60,977 nt of DNA, filler included, from Hausera hauseri (GCA_046269625.1; 12 parts of 12 records of this genome joined end to end with filler, not necessarily neighbours in it), one strand, 5' to 3'; shown: positions 33,933 through 60,977, counted from the whole stretch's first letter. Notes: generated by a model from the sequence alone, not told the origin. Translations and numbers: made by a program.

Positions 33933-34094
33933 TTTTCCGCTAAGGTTATTTATGAGTCGACATAATAGTTTGTATTTCATATTAAAGGGGTTTTTTATTA
34001 GTGGCGTTAAACTGTATTAACAATACGATAAAGACGCCATTTTTACAGCATTTTGAAAACTGTTAATTAGTATTGCTGTTAAAATAATCTTCAG

Positions 34095-36004: not shown

Positions 36005-37381
36005 TGTTGGTTCAGTGTCCAAAATTTCAAAATGTCTCACAAGTTCAAAAATTCGGATTCTTGTCTCTCCTAAGAATGTTTTTATGATTTTTTAGGTTTT
36101 GTTGATTAAGAAGATTTTCTCGTTGTTGTTTTAATTCTAATTGATGTTGAATTTCTTTGTCAATTGCGTTTCTTGCAAAAAAGAACTCTAATCGTTCTTG
36201 GATTCTCCAAATGTAATAATCGATTCTATCTTTTACACGTAGTAAAAATGCTTTAATGCACATTAATTTTCAAATAGATGTTGTTTAATTTAGTTGTTTG
36301 TTTGAGATCCCTTGTATAGGTTTTAAAACAAACTTTAAGAGGAATGTAATTCTATTACAAGCAGAAATTACTTGCCCTTAATGTTTAATTTTATTTATTT
36401 TTATGTAAAGACGTTGGCCTAATTTGACTTCGGCCGTCTGCGCAGTTAATTTGTGGGTAGAAGTTTTCTTAATTAATAAGAAGGAAATGAATTAACACAG
36501 ATAACTTTTACACAAATAAAAAATAAAAATTACTTTCCTTTGCTTGAGAAAGCAAAAACCAAGAATTGGCAAATGTATTTATTGGTTCCTTTCCGGAAAA
36601 TGTCTGATACAATCAAACAGTGATCTAAGAACAGGTGATCACTGAGGCAACGAATTTAGAAATGAAACGAGAGTATCAACCTCGCTATAAACTTTGGCAA
36701 AATTTTAGAAAATCAAAATCAATGATTTAAACTAAGAAAATTTGTGCGAAGGGTATTCTAAAGTTATTCTTTTTATAGGGTTTTATTTTATGTGGGAATT
36801 GCTTTTTTACTATTTTTAGAAGTTTTCTGGGGTTACGGATTTAACTGTAGGTGTTATCATTTATTTTTAGTAATGTTGCGGGGGCATTGTTTTAGCTAGA
36901 AATCTAAATCTGGTGGTGTTTTTCAATGCGAATTTTTATCGCACAAGTGCACAATAATGTTAAATATTGGCATATTTTACAATTAAATTAAAATTGCAAT
37001 ATACAAATTTTTATCGTATTAGATATTAAATTTGCTCTAGGTTTTATGTCATTATTTTAAAACTATTTCGTCGTTAAAATGTAGCGTTAGATTAAACATA
37101 ACTAGACGCAGTTATAACAGCTTTATTGTTAATTCAAGTACGAGTCGCAAATGATTAAGGTAAACTCATCTTATCTAACTGAGTACCAAAGCATAACTGT
37201 TTTCTACCGATTTATAGAACTGCATTACTAACGTGGTTTTTCAACCGACACAGTTTTTTCATTCAATGATCAATAACTTAATAACAGTAACATAATTTTA
37301 CACAATCATTGATTAATAAACTTAGTGCTATTCTTTCATCATTAAGAAAAATTATTTAAAATTTTAATTCATCCCTTAACA
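36005..37381 (-). repeat. 3' LTR (1377 bp, TGTTA...CAACA)
   Basis: Starts with TG right after the PPT and ends TTTTGGACACTGAACCAACA, identical to the end of the LTR at 54738. Confidence 0.85.
36045..36263 (-). CDS. LTR-encoded small basic protein (72 aa)
   Basis: Homologous to ORF 54779-55000 (QERLEFFFAR.AI.KE.QHQLELKQQRENLL), with several synonymous differences. Confidence 0.65.
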   Translation of the reverse strand: MCIKAFLLRVKDRIDYYIWRIQERLEFFFARNAIDKEIQHQLELKQQRENLLNQQNLKNHKNILRRDKNPNF

Positions 37382-37604
37382 TCTTCCCCCCCCCTTTACA
37401 AAAATTTTTTGTTTTGGTAAAGAAAAAATTGATTAAACTATTTAAACGAGGTTGATCTTCTCGCTGCACAAAATGAAACGTACATAAAAAATATTACAAT
37501 TTGGGTAAAAAATACTACAATGATAAAAATAAAAAAATAAAGGTAAAATACAATAAAGAAAGGAGATAGAGGGAACTAAAATTACAAATGAAGTATATAC
37601 AATG

Positions 37605-40600
37605 TTATACTGTAAAGATGTCTATTTCGTGATCAACTGACTGCTGATATATTTGGATCGTGAGGAGCGTTCCTTTCTGCAGATCGGCATCTGATTCTTT
37701 GATTGTGGGTATTCTATATAAGTTCTCCAAGATGTATTTGTTTTTTGTGGCAAATAGAATCATTCTGATTTTGACCTTTTCTGTATCTTTTAATAGTAAT
37801 GGTCGTCCTCCCCTTGGTTTAGGGAGAAGTGTTATATCCAGCTGTATCGGCATTGGCTGAGACGTGAGAATAGGTTTGTGATTGAGTTGTTTAATAGTTT
37901 CTAGATTCCCTCCTAGAAGTGCTAGATGGAGTGTATTATATGTTTTGTTCTTATATACAATACCAAATGGGATTCCGGAATTGTTATTCGGAATTAGGAG
38001 ATGATTATTTGTTATAACCGAACAAGGTTGTGATATGTATCGGACATTAATACATTGACTGATTTGACCATAAAGTAGTATTGATAATTCCGTCAGGGGA
38101 TTTTGATCAATATTTTTAGGTATACCATCAGTATTCTTTTTTAACTGTTCGATTGTCGATAACTCTGTTTTGAATTTTTCATTTTTGTAATTTTCGTGGT
38201 AGGTTGATGGTATCTTCATGAAACTGCCATAGTCGATTAAATTATTAGATGGGGTTCCCAGTCATAGATCCACTTCTCATTTGAGCAGGAATTTTCTATT
38301 TTATTATAAATTTGGATAATGCTTTGGAGGATTTGTTCGGCTGTTTTTGGAAAACTGTAGGCAAAGCCATATATTATTGGCATCTGGGTCAAATTTGCCT
38401 TGATTCCTTCTTCTTGAAACCTTTGCTTCGTATTTTTTGATGCTAGTAAATCTAGCTTTCCAAATATAAAATCTTCCGGAATCCGAAGGGCTTTAAGAAT
38501 AGTGCTTGTGTTAGCACTAATAACAATATACCCGAAGAGGTATTGTATTATCTCTTTCCGGACTTCATCTTCGTCAGGAGACTGTTGGATAATCTGTATG
38601 GACAACCCATGAATATGTTCATTTGTGTTGGCAATTCTCCTTCTTGGATTGATGAAGGATTGATATATTACTAATTGATTTTCGTCAGCTATAATGATCT
38701 CTATAGGTAGAGAATCTCCATTAGAGGCATAGGCCAATGATACTGCTAAGAATCGGTAATTATGGATTGTTGTTAGTCCATAATTGTAAATGTTTCCATC
38801 TGGCTGCTGATAAAAAATCGGTGAGGTAAATCCTGCTTTAATGTCAGTCCTTGTACACGACTCTATGCCTATCACGACTGGCGTAACTAGAATCCGGAAA
38901 TATAGTTTGGTTTTTAGTGCTACGGCCTTAATTTTCATAGTATTTTTTGCCGTAAGCACTGCCATTTTTTCTGATAATGCTTCATACATATCTGAATGGG
39001 CTCTCATTTGTATCCTTCCTTGAGCCAGATGAATTAGAACTTTTTTGGTGGAATCTTCTATCTGGAGTAAGCTCGTAAGATCCGCATTGTACAGCGGTTT
39101 TTCGTATTTTAATATTCGGAACGAGCGATCCGATACTGTATTAGTTTTTAGTGTATTATCGAGATATTTACATTCTGGATAAAGAATATCTGTGGATTCA
39201 TCCATTAATTCAACTAATCGGCTATAGAATTTTGTAGAGTAAAGATTTCTCTTTGCATCATAAACTTTGATAGAATTCTTTTCATATAACTCGCTCAAGG
39301 ATTTGTTCCGTATTCTGTATATTTCGTTTTGCTTTAGGTTTTCTTGTACTGTATCTTGCAGCTTTCGTTGCTTATTTCTAGGTAAGTCATTAAAGGTGAA
39401 TCCTTTTCGTCTAATCTCGTTTATAGACACAAGTGGTTTTCCGATTTCTATACTTTTAGTTGAGATAGGACGCGCTAGGATACCTCTATGCGTCGAATAA
39501 ATTGAATTTGGAGTTTGAAATGTGAATGTGACATTAGATTCCGGGTATATTATTTGTTGCTGAGGCAGTATAACCCTTCGTTTAGGGTTAGGGACTACCG
39601 TATCCATAGAATCATTGGAACTGGTCTCATCCTCTGACTTATCTAAGTCAATATCTGTTTCTGCTTCTTTTGACTGGTAGATTGGTGTATCCATTTGATG
39701 TAAACTGAAAAGAAGAACAGTATAATAGCAGGTCGTTTTTAATGGCCTGTTGTAAGGGTAGGTGTTTACCCTTCGATAGCTCATTGGTTTCGTATGTTGG
39801 TGCAAATCTATTGGTTTAGATTTGCTGGTGTAAAGTAATGTGTGCTTTAGTACTATGGTTTTAGTCAGTGTGTATATTTTAGTGTGTTTATTTTTAACCT
39901 TAAGTATTTTATCCCTTTCAACGTCGACTATCCACCCCACACATGTCAGACATAGTAGATGAGTTGACAATAACAAAGTTTTATTCATGATTGCTCGTTT
40001 TTTGGAAAATCTTTTTATTTCTATTACCACAAAGGGTGTGGATATGGATAGCAGAAGCACTATTATTATTATGGAAGGGATTATGACTTTTAACATATCT
40101 GCTTGTGTACTAGGTTTGGTCACTAATTGTAGTGGCGTGTAGATTGGAAATTCTTCATGTACTAAATATTTTTCGGTTCTTGTTTGAGTTCGGATTGTTT
40201 GATGTCGGGTTTTTGCATAATTTTGTATAAAAACAATCAGGTATTCTTCATCAGGCTGAAGATCGTTACATCTAGTTATTCGCTCATGTTCTTTTATAAC
40301 AGCATATATATTATGGTATTTTCCTACACAGGTGATGGAAATAGGCTCATTTACTAATTGCAAAGTTTTAAATTCGATGTATGAATCTGAGGGGTTGATG
40401 ATTACTTCAGGTATCTTGCCTAATTTGAATATAGTAATTTGGTTATTACTAGAGGCGGATAATATGGTCATGGTTAATGTAGTTATTTGCTTTACTTGAA
40501 AAAATTGCAATAATGGCATGTGAATATGAAAGTTGAGGGCTTTTTCGCCGGACTTATGCTTAAACAATCTAGGGAAATAATATGTTATTTGTAAGTCAAC

Positions 40601-41089
40601 TTCATTTGTTAAGGTAGGTCTTTTTATCATAACTTTGTCTATTAATTTCGGTTCATTGTCCTTTTCTTGAGTAAAGAAAAAGGTAGGGCCAATTCTTTCT
40701 ACGTATTCCTGTCTTGCTATAGGCAAAATTTTCTGTTTGGATTTCAATAACATTTCAGTTGTTAGGAAATAAAGATCTATAAGGCAAATTTCGTTTAATA
40801 ATGGGGTTGAACAACGTTTGGTTGATAACCAAATTGTGTCATTTATTTCTGGTGATAAGATTAATTGGGTGATTTCTTTGTATTTTGATTTTCCTACGAA
40901 TAATCCGTTTACTAACTCTAGTGAATTCTGCCAGGTAATTTCTACTCGTAATTCTAAATTTCTAACTATAGGGTCTGTTATCATAGTTTGTGCCATGGTT
41001 GATAGTATTAGACCAAAAATCATAATTATAAAGAATAACTGTTCCAGACTACAGGCTGGTTTTAAAACAGGTTGTTTCGATGATCGCAA
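37605..41089 (-). pseudogene. Membrane protein + NLS + inactive DEDDh-like cargo polyprotein, second copy
   Basis: Collinear with 56949-60420. Single-base deletions near 41146 and 38255 break what is one ORF in the other copy. Confidence 0.8.
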
Positions 41090-42541
41090 CGAATATCAAG
41101 ATTCTTTTTTAGCTTTTGGCTCTTCTGGTCCTTTCGTGACTCTTTGGCAGATATACATTCAATTATAGACTTTTTATTAGTGCCCTTTTTAATAAATATG
41201 TTTTCAGGTGTGACCTTTACTACTAAGTAGGGTCCTTTACCGGTGCATGTTAGTTTCAATGATTTTCCTGGTTTCGCTACTGGATAGTGTATCATTACTT
41301 TATCACCTGGTTGAAATTTATGGGGTTTAGCCTTTTTATTATAGTATTCTTGATAATCTTGTTTATATTGTTTGATGGCTTGTTTAGCTTTCTTTCAACA
41401 ATTTGCTAAACTGTTTACAATGCTTTCATGTATATCTTCATCAGACTGACCTTCAGGTATTTCCTTTTCTGGTAATAACTGGATGTCCATTGGGAGTAAT
41501 GGTTTTCTACCATACATTAATTCGAATAGTGTATATCCTGATGAGCTAGTAGGTGTAGTTGCAATTGCAAACTGCACGACTTTTAAGTGGGTATCCCAAT
41601 CCTTTTGAGTCTTTGTCTATTATGGCTGATAGTATACATTGCACTGTATAGTTCAGCCTTTCGACTTTACCATTGCATTGAGGGTGGTATGCTGTTGTTA
41701 GCAACCTATTAGTTTGTCATATGTCTGTTATTTCTTTTAATAATTCGCTTCGGAAGTTTGGTGCTCTGTCTGACAATAGGTAACGTGGAGCACCAAATTG
41801 ACAAACTATTTTGCTAATAAACTTCTTTGCAACTGTGATAGCTAACAAATCCTTTGTTGGTATTAGGATAGCTGGTTAAGTAATCCGTACATAATAATAT
41901 GTACTTATTTCCTTTTAGGGTTGTTGGAAAAGGTCCAGAGAAGTCCATGGCGCAAAATTCCATTGGACTACTCGGCTCTGGTAATGGTTTGAGTTCCGGC
42001 CTATACCGTATACCTGTATTTTTCATTGTTGCACACATTTTGCACTCGTCTACCCAATCTTTAACATCTTGTTCGATTGTGGGCCAGTAATATTTCTGGT
42101 TTATTCCTTTTTTAGTTTTTNNNNNNNNNNNNNNNNNNNNNNNNNNNNNNNNNNNNNNNNNNNNTTAATTAATTAANNNNNNNNNNNNNNNNNNNNNNNN
42201 NNNNNNNNNNNNNNNNNNNNCATTGAAGTTGAAAGGATACAAGGATCTGCACGGCGTTAAATTACCAATATGGAAGTTGGGAAAGTTTACGCTGATTATA
42301 CTTACTTTGGATTTGATTTTAGCTTATGAATAACAGATTTTATTGATTTTGTTTTTCATATTGTTTCTCGACACATTTAGCTAAATATATAAATACATAG
42401 ATAAGTTAAATTATAATAAAACAAAAGGCAAAAACAACGAATAATATACATTATTTACAAAACACAGATCACAATAAATTGTCACAGTAAATGGGTCACT
42501 TTGATCTTTCTTCATCCTTAGCACCGAATTTATTTGTGTTT

Positions 42542-45500: not shown

Positions 45501-45700
45501 TTTATAATTCGCAAGCCACTACACTTTTCGGTATAGTTGGCGATTTTTTCGTCCAGGTTTTGGCCTACTACGGCAATAAAATTGTCGGATTACGGTTCGG
45601 CTCGATGTGACAGGAACCATTGTTTCCTATCACATTTCAAATTTTCAAATTCTGCCAGTATATAATACTGAACTTGAGTAGTTATATTACCAGGCTTATG
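42542..45700 (-). pseudogene. Polinton/adintovirus-type pPolB with EndoVII-like insert, degenerate
   Basis: VVNTQNKNDEHCFLYSIL, PYVIYADIE, TDQDHFT, RKGIFPYDF, YIDINNLY, YKLKNNFRYGKTVQN, C-terminal SWAYGHW. Confidence 0.88.
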
Positions 45701-46276
45701 GAATGGCCTCTCAAATTAAAAAAAATTCATTCGTTTGCCACCAACCACCGCTCGCGCATGAAAATTTTTTTAAAAATTTGAAAAACCGACCTATAGCCCT
45801 TGTAATATAACTAATCAAGTCATTAAAAAAATATTCAGTAAAAATGGCTTCAAATAACTCAGATTGTAAATTTTGTGCAACAGGTCGGATTATAATTAAA
45901 TCAGATAATAAGTACATCTGGAGTGAATGTACAATTTGTAAATGTTGTATTAACATTATAAAAATATACAATAAAAAGGGATAATCCGGAACCAATAATT
46001 TCAAATTTAAAGGAAACCAAATTTCAAAATAAACTATTCCCAAATAATTTTCGTTTATTAATGATTGGGAATTTAGAGTGTGGTAAAAATGTGTTATTAA
46101 AGCAAATGCTAACACAACCTGATTTCTTAGATTATGATAATTCATTACTTTTGAATACAACAATATATCAACTAGANNNNNNNNNNNNNNNNNNNNNNNN
46201 NNNNNNNNNNNNNNNNNNNNTTAATTAATTAANNNNNNNNNNNNNNNNNNNNNNNNNNNNNNNNNNNNNNNNNNNN

Positions 46277-49200
46277 AAGATCCAAATGCACGGTTTCAAA
46301 ACGGGAAGTGCAAAGGAAGTGGTAAAGTGGTGGTTTGAGGTGTTTGTTGATTTTATATTGCTGACATGCTACACATCCCTTGACCCAGATCTGTACATCC
46401 ATACGCATAGTTGGCCATACAACGTAGCGTTGCAATAGAAAAAATGTAGCTTTTGAAATCGGATGATGAAGAGAGTAAAAATGAGTGAAAGCTGTTTTTG
46501 TAACGATGGAGCAAGAATGATTTTTTTGTTGTTCCAGTTGGAATTGTCATAGTCAATGCCATCAATGATTTCAACAGATTTAAAAGCTTGGAGAATATCA
46601 GACGATGATTGTTTACTTCTAAAGATTTCAGATAAAAAAATTGGCTGAACTGTAATTGAGTCGACCGACGGCGAAAGAGAGTCTGCTACTAAATTTTCGG
46701 TGCCAAAAATGTACTTAATAGAAATACTAAATGGCGATGGGTATGATATCTGTCGCTCTTGTCTGGGTGATGGCTGTTTTAACGTCATGATATGAAGTAG
46801 AGGTTTGTGGTCGGTTTGGATGGTAAACTGGCGAGATAGAAGCAAATGCTTGAAATGCTTTACCGCTAGAACTACGGCCAGAAGTTCACGATCGAATGTG
46901 GAGCATCTACTTTCCGGTTGCGTGAGCTTTCGGCAATAGAATTCCAATGGCTCGTCAACACCGTTGCCTATTTGGTGTAATATAGCACCAGTGGTTGTGG
47001 TTGAGACATTGGTAGTTAATATCAGTTCTGCGTTTAGTTTTGGAAAAGCCAAAATTTTAACGGTTTTTAGACCTTCACGAAGGCGGTCAAATTGATTTAT
47101 TAAATCGGACGTCCAATAAATTAATTGTATTTTCTTCCCGGATGACAGGTGTGCGAAAGGTGCCGTTAGCTCGAAACAATGTGGCACGTATTTGTGTACG
47201 AAATGCAATGTCCCTAGAAAACTCGTCATATCGGTAGAAGTAGTTGGTATCCTCACATTTTTTAATTGATGTAAGCGATCAGGCTGCGGCGAATGCCCTT
47301 CGGGAGTAATTATGTGGTCTAAGAAGTTGACGCGTTTCTGGAAGAAATTGCATTTGGCGAAATTTATTTGCAGGTTGCATTCTAAGATGCTCACGATGTT
47401 GTTTGATCGAGGTGGAAGCGACTAATATGTCATCTACGTATGGGTGAGCAAAATCAAGACCTGAGAGAACGGTGTCAATGTGGCGCTGAAAGGTCTGAGA
47501 TGCGCTACGTAGGCCGAAAGGCATGAATATGTATTAATAAAGACGAAAGGGTGTGATGACAGCAGTTTTTGGAATGTCATCGAGGGTAACAGGAATTTGA
47601 TGGTAGGCCTTGTGTAGATCAATGGTAGAAGAGGTATTGGTGTTGTTGAGGCTATGAAGAATATCTTTAATGAGTGGTAATGGATAGGCATCTGTAATAG
47701 TTTGATTGTTTAATTGTCGATAGTCGCCATATGGCCTATAGGTACTATCTTTCTTTACCACCACATGAAGAGGAGAAGCCCAAGATGAATTCGATCTCCG
47801 AATGATGCCAAACCTTTCCAGTTCATTAAATTCCTGTTCATAGCTTTACGTCTGCGTGGCGACAAGGGTCTGACCTTTTGTTTCATCGGCCTCTGATGCT
47901 CTGCTACTACGTAATGATAAGTTTTGGATGGCGGCTTGAAGTTGACATCCCTTTTAACTATGCTAAAGCAAGACGTTGTGACGTATGGTTTAAAATTAGA
48001 GTCTAGAGACATGAATGAATGAGGCATGTCATTAGAGAGAACAGCTTCAGTGATTGACAAAAAGCAACTGACATCGATACGGTCGACGCCTAATTTAGAT
48101 TTTTGTTTCAGAATAGATTTATGATTGTCGTCCATAACTGAAATATTACCGACTTTATCGAAAGTTATTTTATAGATGACAAAGCATTCAACATGTTCAC
48201 ATATAAGTGCAATGAATTGCTCGCTAAGTTGTCTACGAGACATATGTTCGAAGTTGCAATTAAGTTTCTGCTTAATAGACAGCTGTATTTGCAATCGACC
48301 AATAGATCATGTGCGGCAAGAAAACTTATCTGGTCAATTCCGTGTTTCCTGCAAGATGCAACGGTTAACCACTGGCAATGAAAAGCGGTGGACAGGAAAT
48401 CATAATTGATGTAGGAACTAAGGACAAGAGAAGGAGCGAAAAGGCAGCTCCTGATTCTATAAGGTATTCGATATGTAAAGTATCTGTACATAACAGTACA
48501 GCTTTCAACAGAAAGAATGCAGAGGTGGTGTTGAAACGGCCATAAGGTTGAGCGATATTGCATGCGCCAGAATGTGCCATAGCATCTGGTGGCATTATTA
48601 GTTTTTTGAAGGTTTTGAAGAAAAGGAAGAAGAGAAAGAAAAGCGAGATTTATCGTTGTAATGTTTGCAACCAGACACGCATGATTTAGCCTGTGACTGG
48701 AACTTATTGTGGTAGACACAAATAGGGTTGTCCACAGCTTACCGTTCGCTGTAGAACCGACAACCCAAAAAGCATTTCCTAGCATCCCTTCGAAATTGCG
48801 TGTGATAGAAGCAAGTCATGCGTCCTCCAGGTGATATTAATCGAGTAGAGTGTCTAGAAATGCTTCTTTCCCTTGAAGATCTGGTTTCACTTTGTCGAGA
48901 TCCATTAAGATTATTTAGTTGGGTAGTAATGGCCGAAATCGACTGCTGTAACTTGTCAAACTGTTACTGCATCATTAGCAATTGTTGAGTAAAAATGTTC
49001 TGTCTGTAGTTGGAACACATGTGGCTGCAGCGCAATAGGGAGAGAACTGTTGACATGATGAATCTCAAAGGATTTGTCAGCCATTATTGCCAGTTTTTCG
49101 ATAGCAGTGGACTCGCGATAACGGTGAGTAAGGCTCTGATTGAGGTGGGCAAAGATGATAAGAAATAACGGCGAATAAAATCCGCGTTATTCGTAGGTGC

Positions 49201-49960
49201 CACTCCTAGAGCGCTAAGCTGCAGAATGGCCGTTTGGAGAAAGTTGGATGGCTTTTGGCTTCCTATCGCGTGGTCGGTAAAATACTTTTGTATTATATTG
49301 TCAATCGAAGGATCCGTAACATGCAGTACAGCTTCACAGAGTGTCTTGTAAGGTGTTGACGATTGTAGCAGCTCGGAGATAGTACTAATCTGCTGCTTGA
49401 CGTTGTCAGGCAGAATAATTAAAAGGCTATTGGCTCGCACAAAAGAATCCGTGATGTTGTTCGATTTTAGCCACTGTTGGTGGAATTAAAGCCATGGTTT
49501 GCTGTAGTTGTTTTTATCAAGGAAAATTCCACACAAGGCAAATTTAACGACGCACGTGATTGTTCAGGGTGTGGCAAACGATACACGTTGCCTGTATTCG
49601 TGGATTTATCATCCGAGAAAGATGGATTTGAGTCCGATCCACCCCGAAGGCGAAAATCAAGCACTAGTTGGATGATGGGACGTTTGCGGAATATGAAAGG
49701 CAAAAGGGAGTTGGAAGGATGTATTATAAGCCATTGACATGTAAAATAGAAATCAGAAGTGTTATATGATGAGGAAAAAGCCTTATATAAGAACTGTGCT
49801 GTCTCGTTCAGTAGAGCTTTTAAAGCTGTAGTGTGTTGGTTGTAGCTAAAGACCAGGAAAGATAATTGTAATGAGGTCATCCCAGGGGAACGATGACATG
49901 CACGGGGGCTTGGGCGCCTCCTCCCCCCGGTTCGAGCGCACAGCCCGGATAGCGGCAACA
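46277..49960 (-). mobile_element. Degenerate Ty3/Gypsy LTR retrotransposon, CsRn1-like, copy C (UBL-gag-PR-RT-RH-IN)
   Basis: UBL ending RLRGG; gag 49084-49600; twin CHCC; gag stop SKN*; PR YLIESGAAFSLL; RT PYGDYRQLN, IDLHKAYHQI, MPFGLRSA, YVDD; RH QTDHKPL; IN CVACQ. Confidence 0.93.
48566..48607 (-). promoter_or_regulatory. -1 ribosomal frameshift signal (A-AAA-AAC plus H-type pseudoknot)
   Basis: Gag ends TCA AAA AAC TAA. Six nt later come stem 1 TGCCA/TGGCA and stem 2 CCAGA/TCTGG. The -1 frame is the protease ORF 48365-48595. Confidence 0.75.
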
Positions 49961-50382
49961 AATGATGATTGAGATAAAGGAATATCCAAAGATGTTAAGC
50001 TTAGAAACCCTTTAAAATGAAAAATGGTTTGAGCCAGGAAGGGTCTGCATATGCCCAAAAAGTGGTCACACTGGTGTGGGCAAATCAGTGACAAAAATCT
50101 CACCACCTGTCTGAATGTTGTTTTACTGAACGCAGTGACAGCTTCTTCATTTCACCAAGCATTGACGATGTGATTTTGATGCAGAATGACTGCGCTGAGA
50201 AATTTTCACCGGGACTGAATGCTGTTAAATTGAAATGGGCACCATGTGACCTGATCTGTCCTTGTGGTGAGAGTATAATAGTNNNNNNNNNNNNNNNNNN
50301 NNNNNNNNNNNNNNNNNNNNNNNNNNTTAATTAATTAANNNNNNNNNNNNNNNNNNNNNNNNNNNNNNNNNNNNNNNNNNNN

Positions 50383-53101
50383 AAACTGAAATCCATCCCG
50401 ACATTTGAACGGCGTAATCCTACTCTGGACATTAACGTTTTCCGGTACAACACAATCGTAGGAATACTAGCAAACGAAGAGATATACAAAAACCCACACG
50501 TGGATATAATTTATCGCAGTCGGAACCCGACTGGACGCTCTGTAAATTTGTTGCTCTTGGAGCAAGCAGATAAATTTCACTACGTGGCAGTAACCAATTT
50601 GGACAGACTGTTGAACACGGATCACTATCAATATGTCCAAAAGCGTATACAATGTAAATGTTGTCTTGTATGTCTCCATGGTTTCAGGTCAAAAACAACA
50701 TGGGAGAAATATGTGGCGCTGTGCGATCAGAATTTAACGGAAACAACCATGTACGTTATGCCACTCAAAAAGGAGCACCTATTCAGTGATTGGTCGAAAA
50801 CGGACAGTCCGGCATATGTGGTATATGCCGATATTGAGGCAATTCTACCAAGGCATAATGTATATGATCAAAAACACGTTCCAATAGCCCTTGGTATATT
50901 GATTGATCCAATAAAAGCGGTCGGTCAGCCACAGTATTACGCCTTTCACGGATGGAACTGTGTACGTGATTTTCTGCAGCGTTTGGAAACAATAATGGAA
51001 ACGGAAATCGAGCCGTATTATCGCAATAATTACACTAAATCCTTTATTTGGACAGATGAATATGAACCGCTGATGTTCGCTGCGACCGATGAATGTTACC
51101 TGTGCAACTAAATATTGCCTTGTCATGCACTAGAACGGCTTGTACCGGACCATGATCATTTCACCGGTCGATATTTGGGAATAGCATGCTATTCGTGAAA
51201 TTTTGCAAGGCGTGTGCGGTTATTCCATCTTTCATAATTTCCAAAGTTATGATTGTCACCATACATTGAAATGGGCCATCAACGGATTTCCGCACTGGGA
51301 ACTGTCCATAATCCAAAAACAACAATGGAGAAGCACTTGTCCCTCTCAGCACGCATAAACCGGTTCCAGGTATGCTTCCTTGACTAATTGCAATTTCTCA
51401 ATGAGTCCCTAGCAAAGCTCATAAATGCCTTGCCGGATGTGCCGATAACCTCAACGCAGTTCCCCACACATATTGCACGCATCAAAGGCATAGACTCATA
51501 TGACTTTGCTGTGTCGTACAAGCGGCTTCAGACAACAGATGAATTGCCGCCACAATGAGCTTGAATCACAGAGGACGAGTACCACATAGCACAGGAAGCG
51601 TGGTTAAAGCTCGGTTGCAGAAACCTGTTGGAGTACATGTTCTAGTACATGAAACTGGACGTATACTTGTTAGCCGATGTGTTTCAGACATTTCGTGCTA
51701 AGGCGTTGGTGGAAGATGGGCTGGAGCCGCTAAACTTTTACTCCATACAGGGGATGAGTTGGACATAAGCACTAATGTCGCTGGACAGGGAAATTGAGCT
51801 TTTGCAAGACCCGGAAATGTACCGACTCTTTGATGTTGGTATTCGTGGCGGCATGACATTTGTCAACAAGCATCACGTAACAAGTGATGACGATGATACA
51901 ACGTCAATGTTCTACATAGATATTAATAACCTGTACAGCTGGGCGCTTTAGCAACCCTTGCCGTACGATTCATTTGAAAGGGTAATGGACAAACAAGAAC
52001 TGTATACACTGCTGGACAGTTTTTCAGCAGCACCAACAAACACGACAGAAAGCAGCTCAGTCAGCTACCTAATGGAAGTCAATCTTTTGGTACCAGATGA
52101 ATTGCATGACGCTCTGGATGAATTACCCGTGGCACCAATTAACCAATGTCCGCCGAGCTCAAAAGTAAAGAAACTGTTCATGACGCATCAACCCAAATCG
52201 AATTAAGTGGTTCATTGGCGTCTACTGCAGTTTATATGCAGCTCGGTGTACGTGTCAAACAGGTGCATCGCGCAATCCACTTCAATCTGACTTTGATATT
52301 CAAGCATACATTGATGGAAATTCTGAGAAACGAGCCGCAGCTTTTACAAAGTTCGAAAAGGACTACTAGAAGTTGAAAAATAATTCGCTGTACGGAAAAG
52401 CAGTAGAGAATCTGAAAAAGCGGCTCAATGTGCGCTTATGTAACAACGAAAAGCGGCTGATTACGTATACCAGCAAGGCTCAGTTCAGGCGGTCAATGCG
52501 CATTACGGACGGATTGGTCGCTATGCTTATAAACAGATAAGAAGTCGTACTGGACCGGCCAAACTATATCGGACAAGTACTATTGGACCTGAGCAAGTTG
52601 TGAATGTACGAGCTCCAGTATTGCGACTTGGTACGTTACCGGCAAATGTTTGGCGACTGTGAAATCAGTATCGTTGCCAGTGACACAAACATCTTTTTTT
52701 GAGTTGAAAAACGTCAATTACGACCAACTGCTCCGACAAATGATGGCAGATAGACTACTGGACAAGTCCAACTTCAAGGATGAAAGTGAAGGTCGGGTTC
52801 AGTATCGGGAATTATATTCCTACGCCCAAAGTGCTACAGACTTGTGACTGACTGTGGACCGAAAATGTGGGCAAAAAGAGTCCAGTTGAGACAGACGGAA
52901 ATCGACCACGGTGATTATCGCCGTATTTATGCAGAAGAAGAACAATCAAAGGCTGTTGTGTTTCAAACGATCTTCCGATCGATTGAGCACCAGCCTATGT
53001 AGGTTAACGAATAAAAATTCGCTTTATCATGGAATGATGATAAGCGTAACTGGGTGGGGCAAAATAAGAGTTAGACGTATGGACATTGCAGGTTGAAATA
53101 A
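50383..53101 (+). pseudogene. Polinton/adintovirus-type pPolB, degenerate; same family as 42542-45700
   Basis: HYVAVTNLDRLL, YVVYADIE, DHDHFTG, GIRGGMTFV, YIDINNLY, KLKNNSLYGKAVENLKKR, C-terminal TYGH. Confidence 0.88.
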
Positions 53102-53389
53102 ACCACGTTCGGTGGTGTCAGATCAGATCAGATCAGATATAGACTATTCAATATTGTGACAATTATTGAAAATTATCATTTGCACATTGTTTTATTTTAA
53201 TGTTAATAACGTACTTTGTTCAGTTTGTTTTGTGTTTTGTTTTCGGTTACTTACTTAACCTATTATTATTAAGTAAGATAAGATAATAGTATAACAATAA
53301 CCTTGCACGAGAAAACAAAATATGTAACACAAATACATTTATTTATTGATAGGAGAAAAACTAAAATCACAAAAACACACAAAGTCAGT

Positions 53390-53960
53390 CAGTTAAATCA
53401 TAGTAAACTTCCCCATTTTTCATATTGTGGATTTGACGCCGCTCCTTTCCTTGAATCCTTTGAGCTTCAGAGTAGGTAGCCTTTAGCTCTTTCCGGTGGG
53501 AAAACTGATGCTGCTGCTGTTTCTCCACCGCCATGTGAACTGACAATTTTCGCCATATTTCCTTTCAGAAAAATAGACTATGTATTTTTGATATCGTGAC
53601 TCAACGCCAAATCACTGTCAACTTTTTTAATTGTGTCGTCCATTGTATACAAATCATTGTTGCGGATCTTTTTCACCAACAGACCATATTTCACAGGTTT
53701 TATTTTGACCGTTTGCGTCAATGGCAATTGAATAGCGTTGCACAGATAATGAACAACCGGGAATTTCTGAGCAAATATTCCCTGTACCGTGGTTTTTTGA
53801 GAGACTGTCATCTGCTAAATTGTTCTCAACCAAAGACATTGTTTAAAAAAGACAAACGTGAACTGAAATTGCATCGGTATTTATATCAAATGTTTGTTTT
53901 CATTGTAAACAATAGATATTTAGTTTGTGAGTATTGTCTCATATCAAAATGATACAAATT
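53390..53960 (-). pseudogene. Unknown gene convergent with pPolB
   Basis: The C-terminus QRIQGKERRQIHNMKNGEVYYDLT matches ERIQGSARR*ITNMEVGKVYADYT at 42222-42310 (+), which lies in the same position relative to the other pPolB copy. Confidence 0.5.
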
Positions 53961-53978
53961 ATCTCCATGTTACTGAAG

Positions 53979-54450
53979 TCATTCGTAATAAATGTGTGCA
54001 ATTTCCATTATAGCACATTTACATTCTGGACATTGGTGGGTTACTTTGGTGATAGTGGTGGTGGAACACATTTGACAAACAACAAGATGGCCGCATATTA
54101 AGAGTACCGTATCAACTTTTCTTTGTTTACATAGTACACACATAAACTGACAGTATCGTACCTTGCCCACTATTTTCTCTTTCAAGTTCTTTGATTCACC
54201 GCGTACCTTTTCAACAGTAGTAAAGTAATCGGTGAATGCACATTTGATTTAATACAATAGTTAGAGTTTCTATAGAACTGCAATCTGTTGCTGTCATTAA
54301 TGATATTGACACTAAATCTTCTTTAAATTCAAAATCGCCTGTTGCACTCACAACCAGCTCATTATCAAGTATTTGCTATCATTGTACCAAGTCTGAAATT
54401 GATAATCTATCAAAATTTTGCAACTGCTTCAGTTGATTAACTATTTCCAT
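53979..54450 (-). pseudogene. C3HC4 RING-finger protein (IAP/Mind-bomb-like RING)
   Basis: CVLCKQRKVDTVLLICGHLVVCQMCS...CPECKCAIMEIAHIY. The upstream part contains stops. Confidence 0.75.
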
Positions 54451-54715
54451 GATGATGATTATGATTTATAGTTTGTGATGATGATNNNNNNNNNNNNNNN
54501 NNNNNNNNNNNNNNNNNNNNNNNNNNNNNTTAATTAATTAANNNNNNNNNNNNNNNNNNNNNNNNNNNNNNNNNNNNNNNNNNNNTCAAGATTTAAGGGT
54601 TCTAGTTCTATTACTAGTTCTTTAAGTTCTAGATTTTGTGTGGAGTCGACAGTCGCACGTTTATTAGGATTTTTTCTAGGTATGTTTGTGTTTTAATTTT
54701 AACTTTAGGAGACAA

Positions 54716-54733
54716 GTCCTGCTAGGGTCGCCA
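54716..54733 (-). other. Primer-binding site, tRNA-Arg-like
   Basis: TGGCGACCCTAGCAGGAC lies 4 nt after the LTR end CAACA and is complementary to a tRNA 3' end (...GUCGCCA). TGGCGACC-type PBS is used by 412/Mdg1-like elements. Confidence 0.8.
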
Positions 54734-54737
54734 GAAA

Positions 54738-56735
54738 TGTTGGTTCAGTGTCCAAAATTTCTAATTCTATTTAAGATATTAGGATTTCGGATTCTTGTCT
54801 CTTTTAAAAGAAAAAAGTTTTCGCTTTTTAACTTTTTGTTGAATAAGAAGATTTTCTCTTTGTTGTTTTAATTCTAATTGATGCTGATTCTCTTTATTAA
54901 TTGCGTGTCTTGCGAAAAAGAACTCTAAACGTTCCTGAAAAACCCAAAGGTAAAATTCAAATCTGATTTTTAAACGTCTCCAAAGAGTTTTAATGCACAT
55001 TAATTGTTTAGGCAATTTGTTTTTGCAGATCTCTTGATCTTTTTAAGCTGAATCAAATATGGATTCTTTGGAGAAGGTTATTTAAAACAAAAGCAGAAAT
55101 TATTTTCCCTTATTGTTTATATTTTAATTATTTTTATGTGATTCGCGTAGCCTACTGTGCTTTCGGCTGCGACCGCTATTAATTATTGGGCTGAAGTTTA
55201 TTTATTTATAACGAAGAAAATAAATAAACACAATTGGAATTTAACCAACAAAAATAAAAATTATTTACGTGTCTTCTGAAAAGCCAAAAGTTTTCGAGAA
55301 TAGTATATTTTCTCAACGAATAAACTGAGAGTACAAATTTGAATGATAACCAACTATGTTGATTATCGGAACCCAAGAGAGAGTCAGTTTCAAATATCGG
55401 AATTTAACCGGTAAAGGTTCAATATTTTATTGAAAACCCTTTAGATAAGAGAATTATTCTCTGTGACTTTTTCTGTTCTGTTCTGTTATTTTTAAGTTGC
55501 ATATTTATACCTTTGTTGAGTGTTGTGGGTGTTCTTAGCTGAGGGTCTCATTTTTCTAGGGGTGTTTGTTATCGAAGTTACTTATTTTAGTAACTTTTTG
55601 TGGATTGATTTATCTGGGGGTGTGGTTTTGATTAAATCCGAGGGTGTTTGTACCTAATTTTAATTAAGTTTGTGGGTGGTTTGTATATTAATTAATAACT
55701 TTTAATAATACGAATTTTTATCGTAACTTATTTCACTATTTCACAACATATTAACTTGCTAAATTATAAAGTCACATTCAACTAAAATTTAATAAATTCT
55801 TTTGTTTTATTCTAATTTTTAAATTGCTCTTAAAAAATGTTCAATTGTAAAACTAATTTGTCACAGAAGATAATCGATTAACTTCAGAACATAACTCTTT
55901 AAAATCACAAAATCAATATCTCAACTTAATTAAATTAGTATTTTTTGTTTTTGATTACGAATTGTTATCGTAATTTATTTTTTAATTTATACATCCGCTG
56001 TATATTTATACTTACTCAATGGTCTTAAATAAAAATCAAAAATTCTAATTTCAATGCAACTGCATGATTGTTATTTCAATGTGACTATGATTGTTAATTA
56101 TGTTTTGAAGTTAAACTACAGGTATGGTTTCATGCATTTAGCAAATTTCAAAATTATTTACAAATGCTCGTAGTAAAAAACTCATTTGTGTATTATAATT
56201 AAACTACTGGATGAGTGCAATAATCTATCTGCTTACAATATGTTTTTAACTACATCATGTTTTAACTCATCGTTTTTCTGTTACTGTAACATCTTTTCTT
56301 AACATCATTTCTGTTCATGTTTTAACTCATTGTTTTATTTTACTTTAACATTCTATTCTGTTACCTTAACACTTGTATTAACCATAACATATGCACAGTT
56401 ATAATGAAAAATTCTGTAATTAAAATTGACTGTACTTCAGACTTAAAACTAAGTAGAGCTAAACGGAAAACAATAAGGTTAGTTCACTGAGGCCATTTGT
56501 CTGATATGCATGCACATGGTAAGTGAATTCTGTTTAAGTGGCCTATTTCATTGATTTACACTTGTTTGTTTCACATGTTTTGGTGTTCATCTAAATTATT
56601 CAAACGATTGCATTGACAACACTTATGTGTACAAATAACAAATTGTTAATAGAATAATTGCAGCAAAACTTGCACAGTGCTGATCGTGACTAACAAAAAC
56701 ATTCATAACATTTAACTAACTCGTTAACCTCAACA
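54738..56735 (-). repeat. LTR (1998 bp, TGTTG...CAACA) flanked by PPT and PBS
   Basis: PPT AAGGGGGGGGGGGGAAGA at 56736-56753; 5-bp terminal inverted repeat; PBS downstream. Confidence 0.88.
54779..55000 (-). CDS. LTR-encoded small basic protein (73 aa from MCIK)
   Basis: Conserved with 36045-36263. The stop lies about 40 nt before the LTR end in both copies. Confidence 0.65.
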   Translation of the reverse strand: MCIKTLWRRLKIRFEFYLWVFQERLEFFFARHAINKENQHQLELKQQRENLLIQQKVKKRKLFSFKRDKNPKS

Positions 56736-56948
56736 TCTTCCCCCCCCCCCCTTAGAAGAAAATTTTCTTTTATAAAAATGAAAATTTTAATTAAATAATT
56801 ATGTGAAACTGGTTCTCTCTGGTTACAAAACAAAAAGAATAAAAATTATACAATTTTTTATGATAACATAAATTAGAAAATGTCACAATAAGTACAGATG
56901 TATCATAGTATGAATTGAAGCAAGAGTGTCATGAGTCAAAACAAAAAG

Positions 56949-59900
56949 TTATAATTGAATGAAAAAGTCTTTATGGATGTCCATTTCTTCCTCAGTTTGG
57001 ATCACCGTCGCGATCTGATAAAGATTTTCCAACGTATATTCGTCTTTTTTGGCGAATAGTAACATTTTAATGTTTGATTTTCCGGAGTTACGCAATTTGA
57101 TTGTTTTTCCTCGTGGATTTGGTATTGGTACCATATCCATTTGTACTGGTATTGGCTGATTAGTCAATATAGGACTGTGCTGTACTTCTTTTAAAATATC
57201 GAAATATATCCCGATCATCGCCAGATGTAAGGTGTTATAAATAGAATGTTTGTAGACTAGTCCCACTACTTTTCCGAATAATTGTGTTGGGACTATTTGT
57301 TTCCATTGATTAAGAGTCGTTTTTGGCTCTTTTGTGAATTTAACATTAATAACATGATTCATATGTCCGTAAACTAGAATGGACAATTGAATAAAAACGA
57401 TTTTTTCCTTTTGATTAAGGCTGTCCATAATTGCATTGGTTTGCAATTTTAATTTTTTAATTGGAGATTCAACTTTTCGTTCTGTGATTTCATTTTCTGC
57501 TAATTTTTCATATTTATAATTCATATGATACTTTTGCGGTATTGTTTCGAAGCTTCCATAGTCAATTAAATTGTGGTAAGGTGGAATCCAACTGTGTTCC
57601 CAATGCTCATTAGAACATGAATCGGTAATTTTTGTGTAGATATCCATTACTACTTGGATTATGGATTCAGCTGTTTTTGGGAAGTCTGTTTGAAATCCGT
57701 ATACTCTTGGTAACTGCGTCAAATTCAATTTCATTTTCCCTTCTTCGAACCTCTTTTTTGTATTGGGAATGGAGAGTAGATCGATAATTCCGAATAAGAA
57801 GGATTGTGGTATTCTTAAGGATTTGAGAATAGTGCTTGTATTAGCACTAATGACGATGTACCCATACAGATATTTAACGAGCTCCTTTCTTACTAGTTCT
57901 TCATCTTCTGCCTCTTCTATGATGGATAATGATAGTCCATGAATATGCTCGTTAGTGTTAGAGATTTTTCGCCTTGGATTTAGAAATGCGTGATAAATGA
58001 GTAATTTCGCTTCGTCTGCGACCATCACTTCTACTGGTAACGGATCTCCATTCGGAGCATATGCTAGAGAAACTGATAGATATCTGTAATTGCATGCTGT
58101 GGAGAGTTGGAAATTTGATATATCTTCTGGTGGTATTTGATGGAATAATGGTTCTTGAAATCCTAAGTTTTCATCCAATGTTTGACATATTTCAACGCCT
58201 AATACTACTGGGGTTAGTAGTATCCTGAAATAGAGAGGCGTTTTAAACGCAATGTTATTGATTTTCATTGTAGATTTAGAATCTAAAACTGATTGTTTTG
58301 GGTTGATACTTTCATAGGTATCCGTATGTGCTCGTAATTGAATTCGTCCTTTTGCTACGTGCAAGAGTATTTTTTCAAAAGGTTCCTGTAGTTTAAGGAA
58401 TTCTGTTAATTTGACATTGTAACATGGATTGTCAATTTTCATTATACGAAAGGACCGTTCATTAATGGTCGAGGTCTTTAAACTATTGTCTAGATATTTG
58501 CTTTGTAAGAATAGTACATCAGTTGAATCTTCTGTGAGTTCGATAAGCCTGTTGTAAAATTTGCTTGGATACATGTTTTTTCCGGCATCATATATGAGGA
58601 TAGACCTGTTATATAATTCGAACCATGGTTTGGTTTTTAATTGATGTTTTTTATTATCTGAGATATTTTCTTGGAGCTGTGATTGTAATTTGATCTGTTT
58701 GTGCTCTGGCAGATCATTAATATCCATTCCCTTTTTCCGAACTTCAACTATAGATTGAATTCGTGGTGTAGTTACCACTGCTGCTGGTGAATTTTGGGTT
58801 ATTTGGTTTGCTAATATCCCTCTTGACAGTCCAAGCCCTTGAGTAGGATTTTGAAATGTAAAGGAATTATAGCATGGTGGTATAACCTTTCTTTTAGGGT
58901 TATACACCACAGTTTCGGTTGATGCATCGGAGTTTGAATCATTGGCATCTAGATCGATGTCTTGTATTTCCATATCGTCACGTACTGGTTTGTTTGAGAA
59001 ACTCATCGTGCTGAAAGAAGAATGATTACTATGGTGGGTCTTATTTAATGGCCCATCTTTAGGGTAGGTGGTTACCCTACAATAATTTTTAATTGGTGTT
59101 ATTGTATTTCTAGTGTATCGTGATTTTATTGGTTGAAACTTAGCATTGCTTTTTAATGTGTGTATTAGTTCATGATATGTGTGTCTTTTTAGGTATTTGA
59201 AATTTGAATGGTATCCTTTAGGATTTTTAAATTTTTTATTTTCCTCGACGTCGACTATCCACTCCACACTCGTCAAACATATTAAATGCGTTGTTAATAA
59301 AAGGGTTTTATTCATAATAGCTTGTTTTTGGGAAAATCTTTTTATTTCTATTATTACGAAAGGTGCAGATATGGATAGTAGAAGGAGTATTATTATAATG
59401 GAAGGGATTATGATCCTCAATGTATCTGTTTGTATACTAGATTTGGTTGCTAGTTGTAACTGCGTATAAACTGGAACTTCTTCATGTATCAAGTATTTTT
59501 CCGTTTTGGTCTTAGTTCGGATTGTTTGATGTCGCGTTTTGGCATAATTTTGTGTGAAGACAATCAAGTATTCTTCGTCAGGTTGGAGGTCGCTACATCT
59601 AGTCATCCTTTCGTGCTTTTTTATAGCGGCGTATATTATGTGATATTTTCCTACACAAGTTATTGAAATAGGATCTTCTAATAATTGCAAGACCTTAAAC
59701 TCAATATATGAGTCTGTTGCTATCATAGTGACATCAGGTATTTTATTTAGGCTAACTGTAGTAATTTGTTTATTACTAAAGGTCGATAATGTGGTGATAG
59801 TTGATATTATTACTTGTTCTATTTTAAAGAATTGCAGTAATGGCATATGGATATGGAAATTCAGGGCTTTTTCGCCGGACTTATGTTTAAATAATCTAGG

Positions 59901-60977
59901 AAAATAATATGTTATTTGCAAATCAACTTCGTTCGTTAAGGTAGGCCTTTTTACCATGACTTTGTCTATCAGTTTTGGTTCTTTATCCTTTTCCTGAGTA
60001 AAGAAAAAGGTAGGGCCTATTCTTTCCACATATACCTGTCTCGCTATAGGCAGGATTTTCTGCTTTGGTTTCAATAGCATTTTGGTTGTTAGAAAGTAAA
60101 GGTCTATAAGACAGATTTCATTTAATAATGGAATTGAACAACGTTTAGTTGATAACCAAATTGCATCGTTAATTTCTGGTGATAGGATCAGTTGGGTTAT
60201 TTCTTTATATTTTGATTCTCCTAAAAATAATCCGTTTACTGAGTCGGCTGAATTTTGCCATGTAATTTTCACTCGTAGTTCTAAGTTGGTGATTATGGGG
60301 TCTGTTACCAAGGTTTGTGCCGTAGTCGACAGTATTAAACCAAAAATTATAATTATAAGAAATAATTGTTCAAGACTACAGGCTGGTTTTAAAACGGGTT
60401 GCTTAGATGATCGCAACGAGTATCGAGGTTCTTCTTTAACTTTTGGTTCTTTTGGTCCTTTTGTGACTCTTTGGGCTGATATACATTCAATTCTGGTCTT
60501 TTTACCAGTGCCCTTTTCGATGAATATATTTTCAGGTGTAACTTTTACTACTAGGTAAGGTCCTTTACCTGTACGAGTTAGCTTCAGTGATTTTCCTGGT
60601 TTTGCTACTGGGTAATGTATCATTACCTTATCTCCTGGTTGGAAATTATGAGGTTTAGCTTTTTTATTATAATATTCTTGGTAATCTTGTTTGTATTGTT
60701 TGATGGCTTGCTTAGCTTTCTTCCAGCAATTTGCTAGGCTGTTTACAACGCTTTCGTGTATTTCTTCATCAGACTGGTTTCCAGATATTTCTTTTTCTGG
60801 TAATAACTGGATATCCATTGGGAGTAATGGTTTTCTTCCATACATTAGTTCAAATGGCGTATATCCTGATGAACTGGTAGGTGTGGTTGCAATTGCAAAC
60901 TGTACCACTTTTAAGTGAATATCCCAATCCTTTTGAGTTTTGTCTATCATGGCTGATAATATACATTGCACTGTATA
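56949..60977 (-). CDS. Ty3/Gypsy Pol C-terminus (integrase, GPY/F) fused in frame to a membrane protein and an NLS + inactive DEDDh-like module; 5' truncated
   Basis: Uninterrupted 1340+ aa: QKDWD, TPFELMYGR, GKGPY; signal-like LFLIIIIFGLILSTTAQ (about 60316-60366); TM about 59351-59415; second hydrophobic segment about 59255-59305; PKRKV; REX4/ISG20-like pattern at 57625-58088. Confidence 0.9.
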   Translation of the reverse strand, partial: YTVQCILSAMIDKTQKDWDIHLKVVQFAIATTPTSSSGYTPFELMYGRKPLLPMDIQLLPEKEISGNQSDEEIHESVVNSLANCWKKAKQAIKQYKQDYQEYYNKKAKPHNFQPGDKVMIHYPVAKPGKSLKLTRTGKGPYLVVKVTPENIFIEKGTGKKTRIECISAQRVTKGPKEPKVKEEPRYSLRSSKQPVLKPACSLEQLFLIIIIFGLILSTTAQTLVTDPIITNLELRVKITWQNSADSVNGLFLGESKYKEITQLILSPEINDAIWLSTKRCSIPLLNEICLIDLYFLTTKMLLKPKQKILPIARQVYVERIGPTFFFTQEKDKEPKLIDKVMVKRPTLTNEVDLQITYYFPRLFKHKSGEKALNFHIHMPLLQFFKIEQVIISTITTLSTFSNKQITTVSLNKIPDVTMIATDSYIEFKVLQLLEDPISITCVGKYHIIYAAIKKHERMTRCSDLQPDEEYLIVFTQNYAKTRHQTIRTKTKTEKYLIHEEVPVYTQLQLATKSSIQTDTLRIIIPSIIIILLLLSISAPFVIIEIKRFSQKQAIMNKTLLLTTHLICLTSVEWIVDVEENKKFKNPKGYHSNFKYLKRHTYHELIHTLKSNAKFQPIKSRYTRNTITPIKNYCRVTTYPKDGPLNKTHHSNHSSFSTMSFSNKPVRDDMEIQDIDLDANDSNSDASTETVVYNPKRKVIPPCYNSFTFQNPTQGLGLSRGILANQITQNSPAAVVTTPRIQSIVEVRKKGMDINDLPEHKQIKLQSQLQENISDNKKHQLKTKPWFELYNRSILIYDAGKNMYPSKFYNRLIELTEDSTDVLFLQSKYLDNSLKTSTINERSFRIMKIDNPCYNVKLTEFLKLQEPFEKILLHVAKGRIQLRAHTDTYESINPKQSVLDSKSTMKINNIAFKTPLYFRILLTPVVLGVEICQTLDENLGFQEPLFHQIPPEDISNFQLSTACNYRYLSVSLAYAPNGDPLPVEVMVADEAKLLIYHAFLNPRRKISNTNEHIHGLSLSIIEEAEDEELVRKELVKYLYGYIVISANTSTILKSLRIPQSFLFGIIDLLSIPNTKKRFEEGKMKLNLTQLPRVYGFQTDFPKTAESIIQVVMDIYTKITDSCSNEHWEHSWIPPYHNLIDYGSFETIPQKYHMNYKYEKLAENEITERKVESPIKKLKLQTNAIMDSLNQKEKIVFIQLSILVYGHMNHVINVKFTKEPKTTLNQWKQIVPTQLFGKVVGLVYKHSIYNTLHLAMIGIYFDILKEVQHSPILTNQPIPVQMDMVPIPNPRGKTIKLRNSGKSNIKMLLFAKKDEYTLENLYQIATVIQTEEEMDIHKDFFIQL

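Follow-up and report, generated by a model that had tools for sequence, protein, structure and literature searches.

A conserved 69-nt cassette, candidate splice acceptor for an accessory module, and a dispersed hairpin family in the polyprotein frame of two Ty3/gypsy elements of Hausera hauseri

The window analyzed here is the whole stretch of 60,977 nucleotides from Hausera hauseri (GCA_046269625.1), filler included, in which 12 pieces are joined by artificial spacers. Two of these pieces, copy A (35268-42120) and copy B (54586-60977), each contain, on the minus strand, the 3' half of a Ty3/gypsy-type element; the two elements are related, and both pieces start within the integrase. The order of the parts is the same in both copies: integrase C-terminus, hydrophobic segment, an ectodomain of ~300 aa, transmembrane (TM) segment, weak third hydrophobic segment, basic linker, 685-aa module, polypurine tract and long LTR. 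In both, the accessory coding region lies in frame within one polyprotein ORF; copy A is frameshifted in the integrase and near 38250. Identity between the copies amounts to 80-90% over the integrase and most of the ectodomain and to about 50-65% over the linker and the module. The frame and the hydrophobic segments of copy B are located as follows.

56949..60977, minus strand: reading frame of copy B, running without a stop over 1342 codons from the window edge, from the integrase C-terminal part to the accessory module
about 60306-60362, minus strand: H1 of copy B, hydrophobic, inside this frame
about 59343-59399, minus strand: H2 of copy B, TM, inside this frame
about 59247-59303, minus strand: H3 of copy B, marginal, inside this frame

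Judged by the features present, i.e., an integrase ending pol with a C-terminal motif of the GPY/F type, a polypurine tract, an LTR with TG...CA ends and a primer-binding site, both elements are assigned to the Ty3/gypsy LTR retrotransposons. The truncated integrase had no match in Pfam; a tblastn search recovered 13 distant, partly redundant integrase loci, none of which (0/13) was accompanied by the module or the ectodomain. Contigs from two contig runs (word shares of 0.69 and 0.50, thousands of related contigs) were compared with copy B. Over its piece (54586-60977), summed contig depth was 10,000-40,000 on the integrase and ectodomain, a few hundred on the module and tens on U3, a profile in line with many subfamilies that have a common 5' part and differing modules, depth not being copy number. 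Elsewhere, the window holds a Hydin-like host gene with long exons (9304-14777, plus strand), a Sec62 fragment of a host gene (34083-34634, plus strand) and other decayed mobile elements (14878-18950, 46277-50282, 23168-30489, 42221-46176 and 50383-54485), including two Ty3/gypsy RT-RNase H pieces and, as labels assigned by reading, a helitron-like helicase that carries the remnant of a gypsy integrase, as well as a pair of related pieces akin to protein-primed DNA polymerase elements.

Behind the integrase, 59250-60410 of the minus strand encodes in frame a signal-like segment, a 300-aa ectodomain and a TM segment, 80-90% conserved; copy B has no Met before its first hydrophobic segment. The ectodomain, only about 300 aa long, had no match in Pfam, and this unit is possibly an envelope or receptor-like protein. 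Errantivirus Env of the F or gB type is recognized by an F or gB ectodomain (PMC13524379). A fibronectin-III identity of the ectodomain was a guess and was dropped for want of support. On the Kyte-Doolittle scale, H1 and H2 are clear at 2.1-2.8, H3 reaches 1.5-1.8 and a stretch of the soluble module 1.4-1.5. The preliminary description had proposed a signal peptide and two TM segments, from which it reasoned that the module would be lumenal unless made on its own: H1 and H2 bear this out, whereas the third segment is marginal and scores like the soluble-module stretch. The topology argument is hence weak and adds little, the module possibly facing the cytosol within the polyprotein; if H3 does not cross the membrane, the module may already be cytosolic there. 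Moreover, no stop interrupts the linker frame in either copy (chance 0.003 and 0.008), against 7-12 stops in each of the alternatives to this frame, and the fused form is thus maintained too.

Regarding the module itself, two domains can be delineated.

56949..59006, minus strand: copy B accessory module, 685 aa, with an acidic N-terminus, a PKRK-type motif, two domains and an unassigned C-terminal 200 aa
about 58164-58628, minus strand: AlkB-like double-stranded beta-helix of copy B, from a predicted model
about 57597-58094, minus strand: dead DEDDh-like domain of copy B, from homology, catalytic residues replaced
37605..39694, minus strand: copy A accessory module, broken by the frameshift near 38250

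Among 1.8 billion representatives searched with HMMER, four distant relatives of the module were found (E 5e-6 to 9e-4), called as separate proteins and none fused to an integrase. One of them, P0003 (E 1.8e-4 to the module), matches Pfam RNase_T above the cut-off and has the DEDDh catalytic D-E-D-H-D residues, which alignment A3 shows to be replaced in both window copies. The label of NLS/pseudonuclease module given earlier thus stands for the pseudonuclease (RNase_T homology, catalytic residues lost), and the DEDDh domain of the module is, from its sequence, catalytically dead; the NLS is a motif match only, a PKRK/PKRR motif being kept near the module N-terminus in both copies. Against the PDB, the sole match of the module was the PolC exonuclease (E 0.4). 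A model built from six module sequences has a mean pLDDT of 45, with 70-82 over most of residues 191-270, and its residues 127-281 form a double-stranded beta-helix whose best match is ALKBH7 (Z 10.2, rmsd 3.6, 138 aligned); for this model of mean pLDDT 45, other fold matches were cupins (Z 7-9), and Foldseek gave E 8e-4 at best. An AlkB-like barrel is hence predicted with low confidence. In the sequence alignment, an HxD word is common to A and B and absent in the four relatives, and no distal His is conserved; the iron triad of AlkB is not evidently kept. Protein searches with the single module sequence or with alignment A1 gave no match and those with alignment A3 one weak named match, locus scans gave nothing in viral contigs and, with A1, nothing in metagenome contigs, and the atlas search no usable match for the module. 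We infer that the module may be a nuclear RNA-binding adaptor. Relative P0004 has an extra C-terminal RING finger, and the called N-termini of P0001 and P0002 contain stretches rich in Phe and Leu that immediately precede the aligned region, as a translated pyrimidine tract would.

Just upstream of the module ATG, inside the linker, both copies share the following succession of features.

59060..59079, minus strand: copy B hairpin 1, 7-bp stem and 6-nt A/C loop, member of a dispersed family
39754..39773, minus strand: copy A hairpin 1, counterpart of copy B hairpin 1
59033..59057, minus strand: copy B hairpin 2, 4-bp core 59055-59052/59038-59035 and outer pair 59057/59033
39727..39751, minus strand: copy A hairpin 2, with its core at 39749-39746/39732-39729; relative to B, both sides are changed in two core pairs and in the outer pair
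59011..59022, minus strand: copy B pyrimidine tract and CAG, candidate 3' splice acceptor
39705..39717, minus strand: copy A pyrimidine tract and CAG, candidate 3' splice acceptor
59004..59006, minus strand: copy B in-frame ATG, 4 nt after the AG
39692..39694, minus strand: copy A in-frame ATG, 10 nt after the AG

The preliminary description had already pointed to several of these, and they lie where it had placed them: the 20-nt hairpins (hairpin 1) at 59060-59079 and 39754-39773, with a terminal pair that is compensatory (U-A in B, A-U in A; pairing probability 0.42 in B and 0.92 in A), GGCCATTAAA starting at 59053 (B) and 39747 (A), the AG at 59011-59012 (B) and 39705-39706 (A), and the in-frame ATG, whose first base is 59006 in B and 39694 in A and from which copy B runs for 685 aa to the stop. 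The constrained unit exceeds that description and forms an ungapped 69-nt cassette of hairpin 1, hairpin 2, pyrimidine tract, CAG and in-frame ATG, set in both copies within the open integrase-membrane-accessory reading frame. From the start of hairpin 1 to the AG, A and B align with no gaps and are identical at 48 of 69 nt, against 19-20 of 69 in four flanking windows compared at the same offset. The synonymous-site difference, estimated for the cassette from 23 codon pairs with uncertain gap placement near the ATG, is 0.13, vs 0.49-0.90 in six protein regions and 0.41 in the whole linker; as the non-synonymous difference in the cassette is 0.35, the constraint acts on nucleotides and not on protein. 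The TTCTTCTTT word stands in a different codon phase in A and B. Among 40 of the 1264 variants and 15 of the 29 joints listed relative to copy B, none falls in the cassette or at the AG.

The folding energy of the single sequences is unremarkable (z -0.42 and -1.00 over 101 nt, -1.18 and -2.35 over 41 nt); for the fold of the cassette shared by A and B, 0 of 1000 column shuffles were equally stable, and in its paired columns every difference between the copies is a double change, altering amino acids. Hairpin 2, absent from the preliminary description, is a 4-bp stem located 4-5 nt past hairpin 1 in both copies. Its first two core pairs are U-A and G-C in B, C-G and A-U in A, and its outer pair, read directly off the sequences, is G-C in B and A-U in A; its pairing probability in a 300-nt context is 0.79-0.95 in B and 0.52 in A. 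For hairpin 2 alone, at least two compensatory pairs arose in 123/5000 and 61/5000 shuffles, so that its support is modest, and with only two copies the covariation rests on three or four pairs of a structure derived from the same two sequences. To the extent that these sequences can tell, the acceptor-specific structure is hairpin 2, not hairpin 1.

The loop of hairpin 2 holds the conserved CCATTAAA, about 35 nt before the AG, as a candidate branch or poly(A) word. For a branch site, the conserved ATTAA at this distance is a partial match, and no good branch word is common to A and B; between the loop and the CAG, copy B has two intervening AGs (59042-59040 and 59031-59029) and copy A none. 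As an internal polyadenylation signal, ATTAAA in the loop and a U-rich downstream element would end some transcripts before the module. The hexamer is indeed conserved in the loop of both copies, 20 nt before the U-rich tract, and in HIV-1 the poly(A) hairpin likewise carries its hexamer within a hairpin; we nevertheless regard this explanation as very unlikely, as it accounts neither for the CAG nor for the in-frame ATG and, the frame being open at the cassette, the product of the polyadenylated RNA would be made without a stop codon.

The pyrimidine tract measures 10-11 nt and is followed by CAG in both copies. It is one of just two pyrimidine runs of at least 9 nt in each coding region, the other one coding for a conserved TFFF peptide, without AG. 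When the codons were shuffled 2000 times, 2.8% (B) and 2.2% (A) of the shuffled coding regions had, at any position, an acceptor-like site with an in-frame ATG within 13 nt; under a looser acceptor rule, 6 sites were found in piece B and 3 in piece A, the cassette site being the only one common to both. If this CAG is an acceptor, the first exon base would be C or T and not G, which speaks against splicing. The same nucleotides could also be read as an internal promoter, with the CAG region as initiator and an AT-rich word about 35 nt upstream as a TATA-like element, producing a capped RNA with a very short leader in the manner of the Tor3b/4b env or foamy-virus accessory genes. The spacing between the AT-rich word and the CAG is the same in both copies, and copy A reads TCAGTT, which resembles the initiator motif; the initiator match of copy B is poorer. 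Although Tor3b/4b env RNAs begin at an internal promoter (PMC4402516), we consider a promoter unlikely here, as the leader would be 6-12 nt long and the compensatory pairs of hairpin 2 would not be needed. Alternatively, ribosomes would be brought to the ATG of the full-length RNA by both hairpins and the pyrimidine tract, through internal ribosome entry or re-initiation. Structured, covarying RNA does stand directly before the tract and the ATG, whose start context is moderate in both copies; such a mechanism seems quite improbable, as it leaves the conserved CAG at the tract end unexplained, the tract-to-ATG spacing differs by 6 nt and 69 nt is small for an internal ribosome entry element.

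Whereas hairpin 1 had been tied to the acceptor by the preliminary description, it turned out to be one member of a dispersed family of the same shape, other members of which are listed below; as an acceptor-specific signal, it was ruled out by these look-alikes along the element.

59759..59778, minus strand: family hairpin in the copy B ectodomain; the A counterpart lies at 40432-40451 and differs in the loop only
58883..58902, minus strand: imperfect (6 of 7) family hairpin of copy B over the PKRK motif; perfect A counterpart at 39571-39590
58202..58223, minus strand: family hairpin (8 bp), B only
57830..57849, minus strand: family hairpin in the dead DEDDh domain of copy B; A counterpart at 38500-38519, differing in the loop only
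57429..57448, minus strand: family hairpin, B only
55575..55596, minus strand: 8-bp hairpin of the family type, located in the LTR of copy B and upstream of its TATA word
39802..39825, minus strand: family hairpin (9 bp) in the linker, A only

Perfect 7-bp stems with six-base loops number 5 in the 4029-nt frame of B and 5 in the 2859-nt frame of A (the count for A leaves out the part beyond the frameshift), for an expectation per frame of 0.33 (B) and 0.24 (A) in synonymous shuffles and of 0.26 (B) and 0.21 (A) in codon shuffles; 5 such hairpins were reached in 0/3000 shuffles in any of the four tests and, when loop lengths of 3-10 were scanned, the excess appeared at 6 only. On the sense strand, all ten loops of the family begin with A and eight of the ten consist purely of A and C, and in the eight non-redundant loops, including the one in the B LTR, 45 of 48 bases are A or C, a rule formulated after seeing the data. 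Over the four orthologous hairpin pairs, A and B diverge at 4 of 24 positions in the loops and at 3 of 56 in the stems, two of the three stem changes forming a compensatory pair. The stem sequence varies from site to site with complementarity kept, which argues for a structure and not a DNA-binding consensus. As controls, the other pieces contain 6 such stems in 46,632 nt, two of them with an A/C-rich loop on one strand, and the 13 partly redundant integrase loci (about 149 kb) contain 22, none with an A/C-only loop. Rfam gave no accepted match, the 3 matches obtained being far below the gathering score. Within the integrase, a 6-bp stem with a six-base loop (60960-60977 in B, 41633-41650 in A, minus strand) is identical in A and B, and its loop is not A/C-only.

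It is likely that the family hairpins bind a protein, element-encoded or host, along the RNA. Protein binding might even be all that the region does, its hairpins being clustered in a linker that tolerates them and serving packaging, export or localisation, the tract and the AG being incidental and the module being freed by proteolysis on the cytosolic side. Several observations go in this direction, i.e., the membership of hairpin 1 in the dispersed family, the presence in copy A of three family hairpins within 260 nt around the cassette, the marginal H3 and the absence of stops in the linker of both copies (chance 0.003 and 0.008). We think it improbable, however, as the tract, conserved although the strand is A-rich and its codon phase differs between the copies, is in both followed by CAG and ATG. 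In addition, 5 of the 10 strict hairpins lie downstream of the AG and would remain in the spliced RNA, a poor fit to a pure packaging role.

On the 5' side, a donor has to be looked for in the leader, which was read from the 3' LTRs together with the donors, the start site being inferred.

54738..56735, minus strand: copy B LTR with TG...CA ends, preceded by a polypurine tract (about 56736-56751) and containing a TATA word (55509) and a candidate donor GT (55268)
36005..37381, minus strand: copy A LTR, preceded by a polypurine tract (about 37382-37394) and containing a TATA word (36777) and a candidate donor GT (36533)

From the TATA word to a small ORF in U5 (about 510 nt), A has no ATG and B one, inside the TATA region, vs about 8 expected. 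GTRA words in this stretch number one in B, 241 nt from the TATA word, and five in A, one of which is 244 nt from it. The candidate donors at 55268 and 36533 agree with 7 of 9 consensus positions each, with an offset of 3-4 nt between the copies, and are weak candidates. The small ORF, at the 3' end of the LTR (54779-55000 in B, 36045-36263 in A, minus strand), encodes a conserved basic, helical peptide of 72-73 aa; within the 5' LTR, it would lie upstream of the primer-binding site and be the ORF that comes first on the genomic RNA. A small GC-rich hairpin of the LTR leader (about 55147-55167 in B and 36414-36435 in A, minus strand) has one compensatory pair between A and B in an alignment read by eye. 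Directly after the B LTR, a primer-binding-site-like word and more element sequence (54586-54737, minus strand) correspond either to a tandem copy with one common LTR or to a collapsed assembly.

The interpretation that we favor, with a probability of about 0.55, is that the cassette is a spliceosomal 3' splice acceptor letting the 685-aa protein be made from its own RNA, with the unspliced RNA still giving the fused polyprotein. A non-coding first exon from the 5' LTR, with its candidate donor about 240 nt past the TATA word, would be joined to the CAG; this splice would remove the small ORF and the module ATG would become the first AUG of the spliced RNA. In a variant of this scheme, a spliced leader would be trans-spliced at the same AG. 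Hairpin 2 would present or hide the branch region and keep the acceptor weak enough for genomic RNA to survive, and the RNA left unspliced would continue to encode the fused polyprotein. Splicing explains the tract, the CAG, the ATG and the structured branch region together and has a close precedent in Cer1; in its favor too, all relatives of the module (4/4) are called as proteins of their own that lack an integrase. On the other side, the scarcity of AUGs in the leader is accounted for just as well if the small ORF of U5 comes first and, with H3 marginal, the module may not need a separate RNA.

Several known systems invite comparison. In Cer1 of C. elegans, a single long ORF is accompanied by a spliced mRNA, which may or may not carry SL1 and has its last exon in the polyprotein frame past a TTTCAG acceptor, and CERV is a nuclear pseudo-enzyme needed for genomic RNA export (PMC3315495, PMC10309623). 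The copies studied here are likewise Ty3/gypsy elements with one long ORF, an in-frame acceptor (here a candidate) and an accessory protein with an NLS motif and a pseudo-enzyme domain, the nuclear export role being CERV's. By description, which is what sets the likeness, CERV differs in being a five-exon fusion with Gag pieces and in its pseudo-GTPase fold (PMC3315495, PMC10309623), whereas the module has its own ATG after the AG and AlkB-like and DEDDh-like domains, and stands behind a membrane module. Repeated hairpins are not named in the sections of the Cer1 accounts at hand, 'stem-loop' having 0 matches in PMC10309623. The Ty3/gypsy Tor elements of Oikopleura express their 3' gene either through splicing of the RNA (Tor3a) or from an internal promoter (Tor3b/4b); it is a separate env ORF, whereas here the signal is inside a continuous frame and would serve a soluble module behind the membrane part (PMC4402516). 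The bdelloid LTR retrotransposons Juno and Vesta have as an extra 3' gene ORF3, a DnaQ-like DEDDy exonuclease, described as a separate ORF with intact catalytic residues and no TM domains (PMC5408684). The module of H. hauseri is in contrast DEDDh-like, dead, joined to an AlkB-like barrel and in frame with the integrase and the membrane module. Regarding the hairpins, STNV packaging signals are many sequence-degenerate stem-loops with a common A-rich loop motif across coding RNA (PMC5699041), and many degenerate stem-loops with a common loop motif are what we found in the hairpin family. In STNV, an RNA virus, these are AXXA tetraloops bound by the coat protein, unlike the predicted 7-bp stems with six-base A/C loops of a retrotransposon. 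Searches of an open-access library gave no account of a comparable hairpin family, nor of an LTR element whose module combines an AlkB-like with a dead DEDDh domain.

As a spliced accessory gene within a single retrotransposon ORF is known from Cer1, the acceptor alone would be a new case of a known device, and the hairpin family is the more surprising part. It is indeed unexpected to find a hairpin of fixed geometry repeated along a coding sequence and retained between copies that are nearly saturated at synonymous sites, and unexpected as well that the adjacent accessory protein combines two nucleic-acid-modifying folds, one of them clearly inactivated. Little is settled about the way in which LTR retrotransposons single out unspliced RNA for export and packaging, and for this question the element provides both a candidate RNA motif and a candidate binder, each of them defined. 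A Rev-like circuit, which we deem rather unlikely, would join the two: the structured acceptor would give a spliced RNA for a nuclear double pseudo-enzyme (AlkB-like barrel and dead DEDDh) binding the element's own 7-bp A/C-hexaloop hairpins, to export or protect the genomic RNA. If true, it would represent a complex-retrovirus-like circuit in a Ty3/gypsy element, in which the hairpins would be a distributed response element written into the coding sequence.
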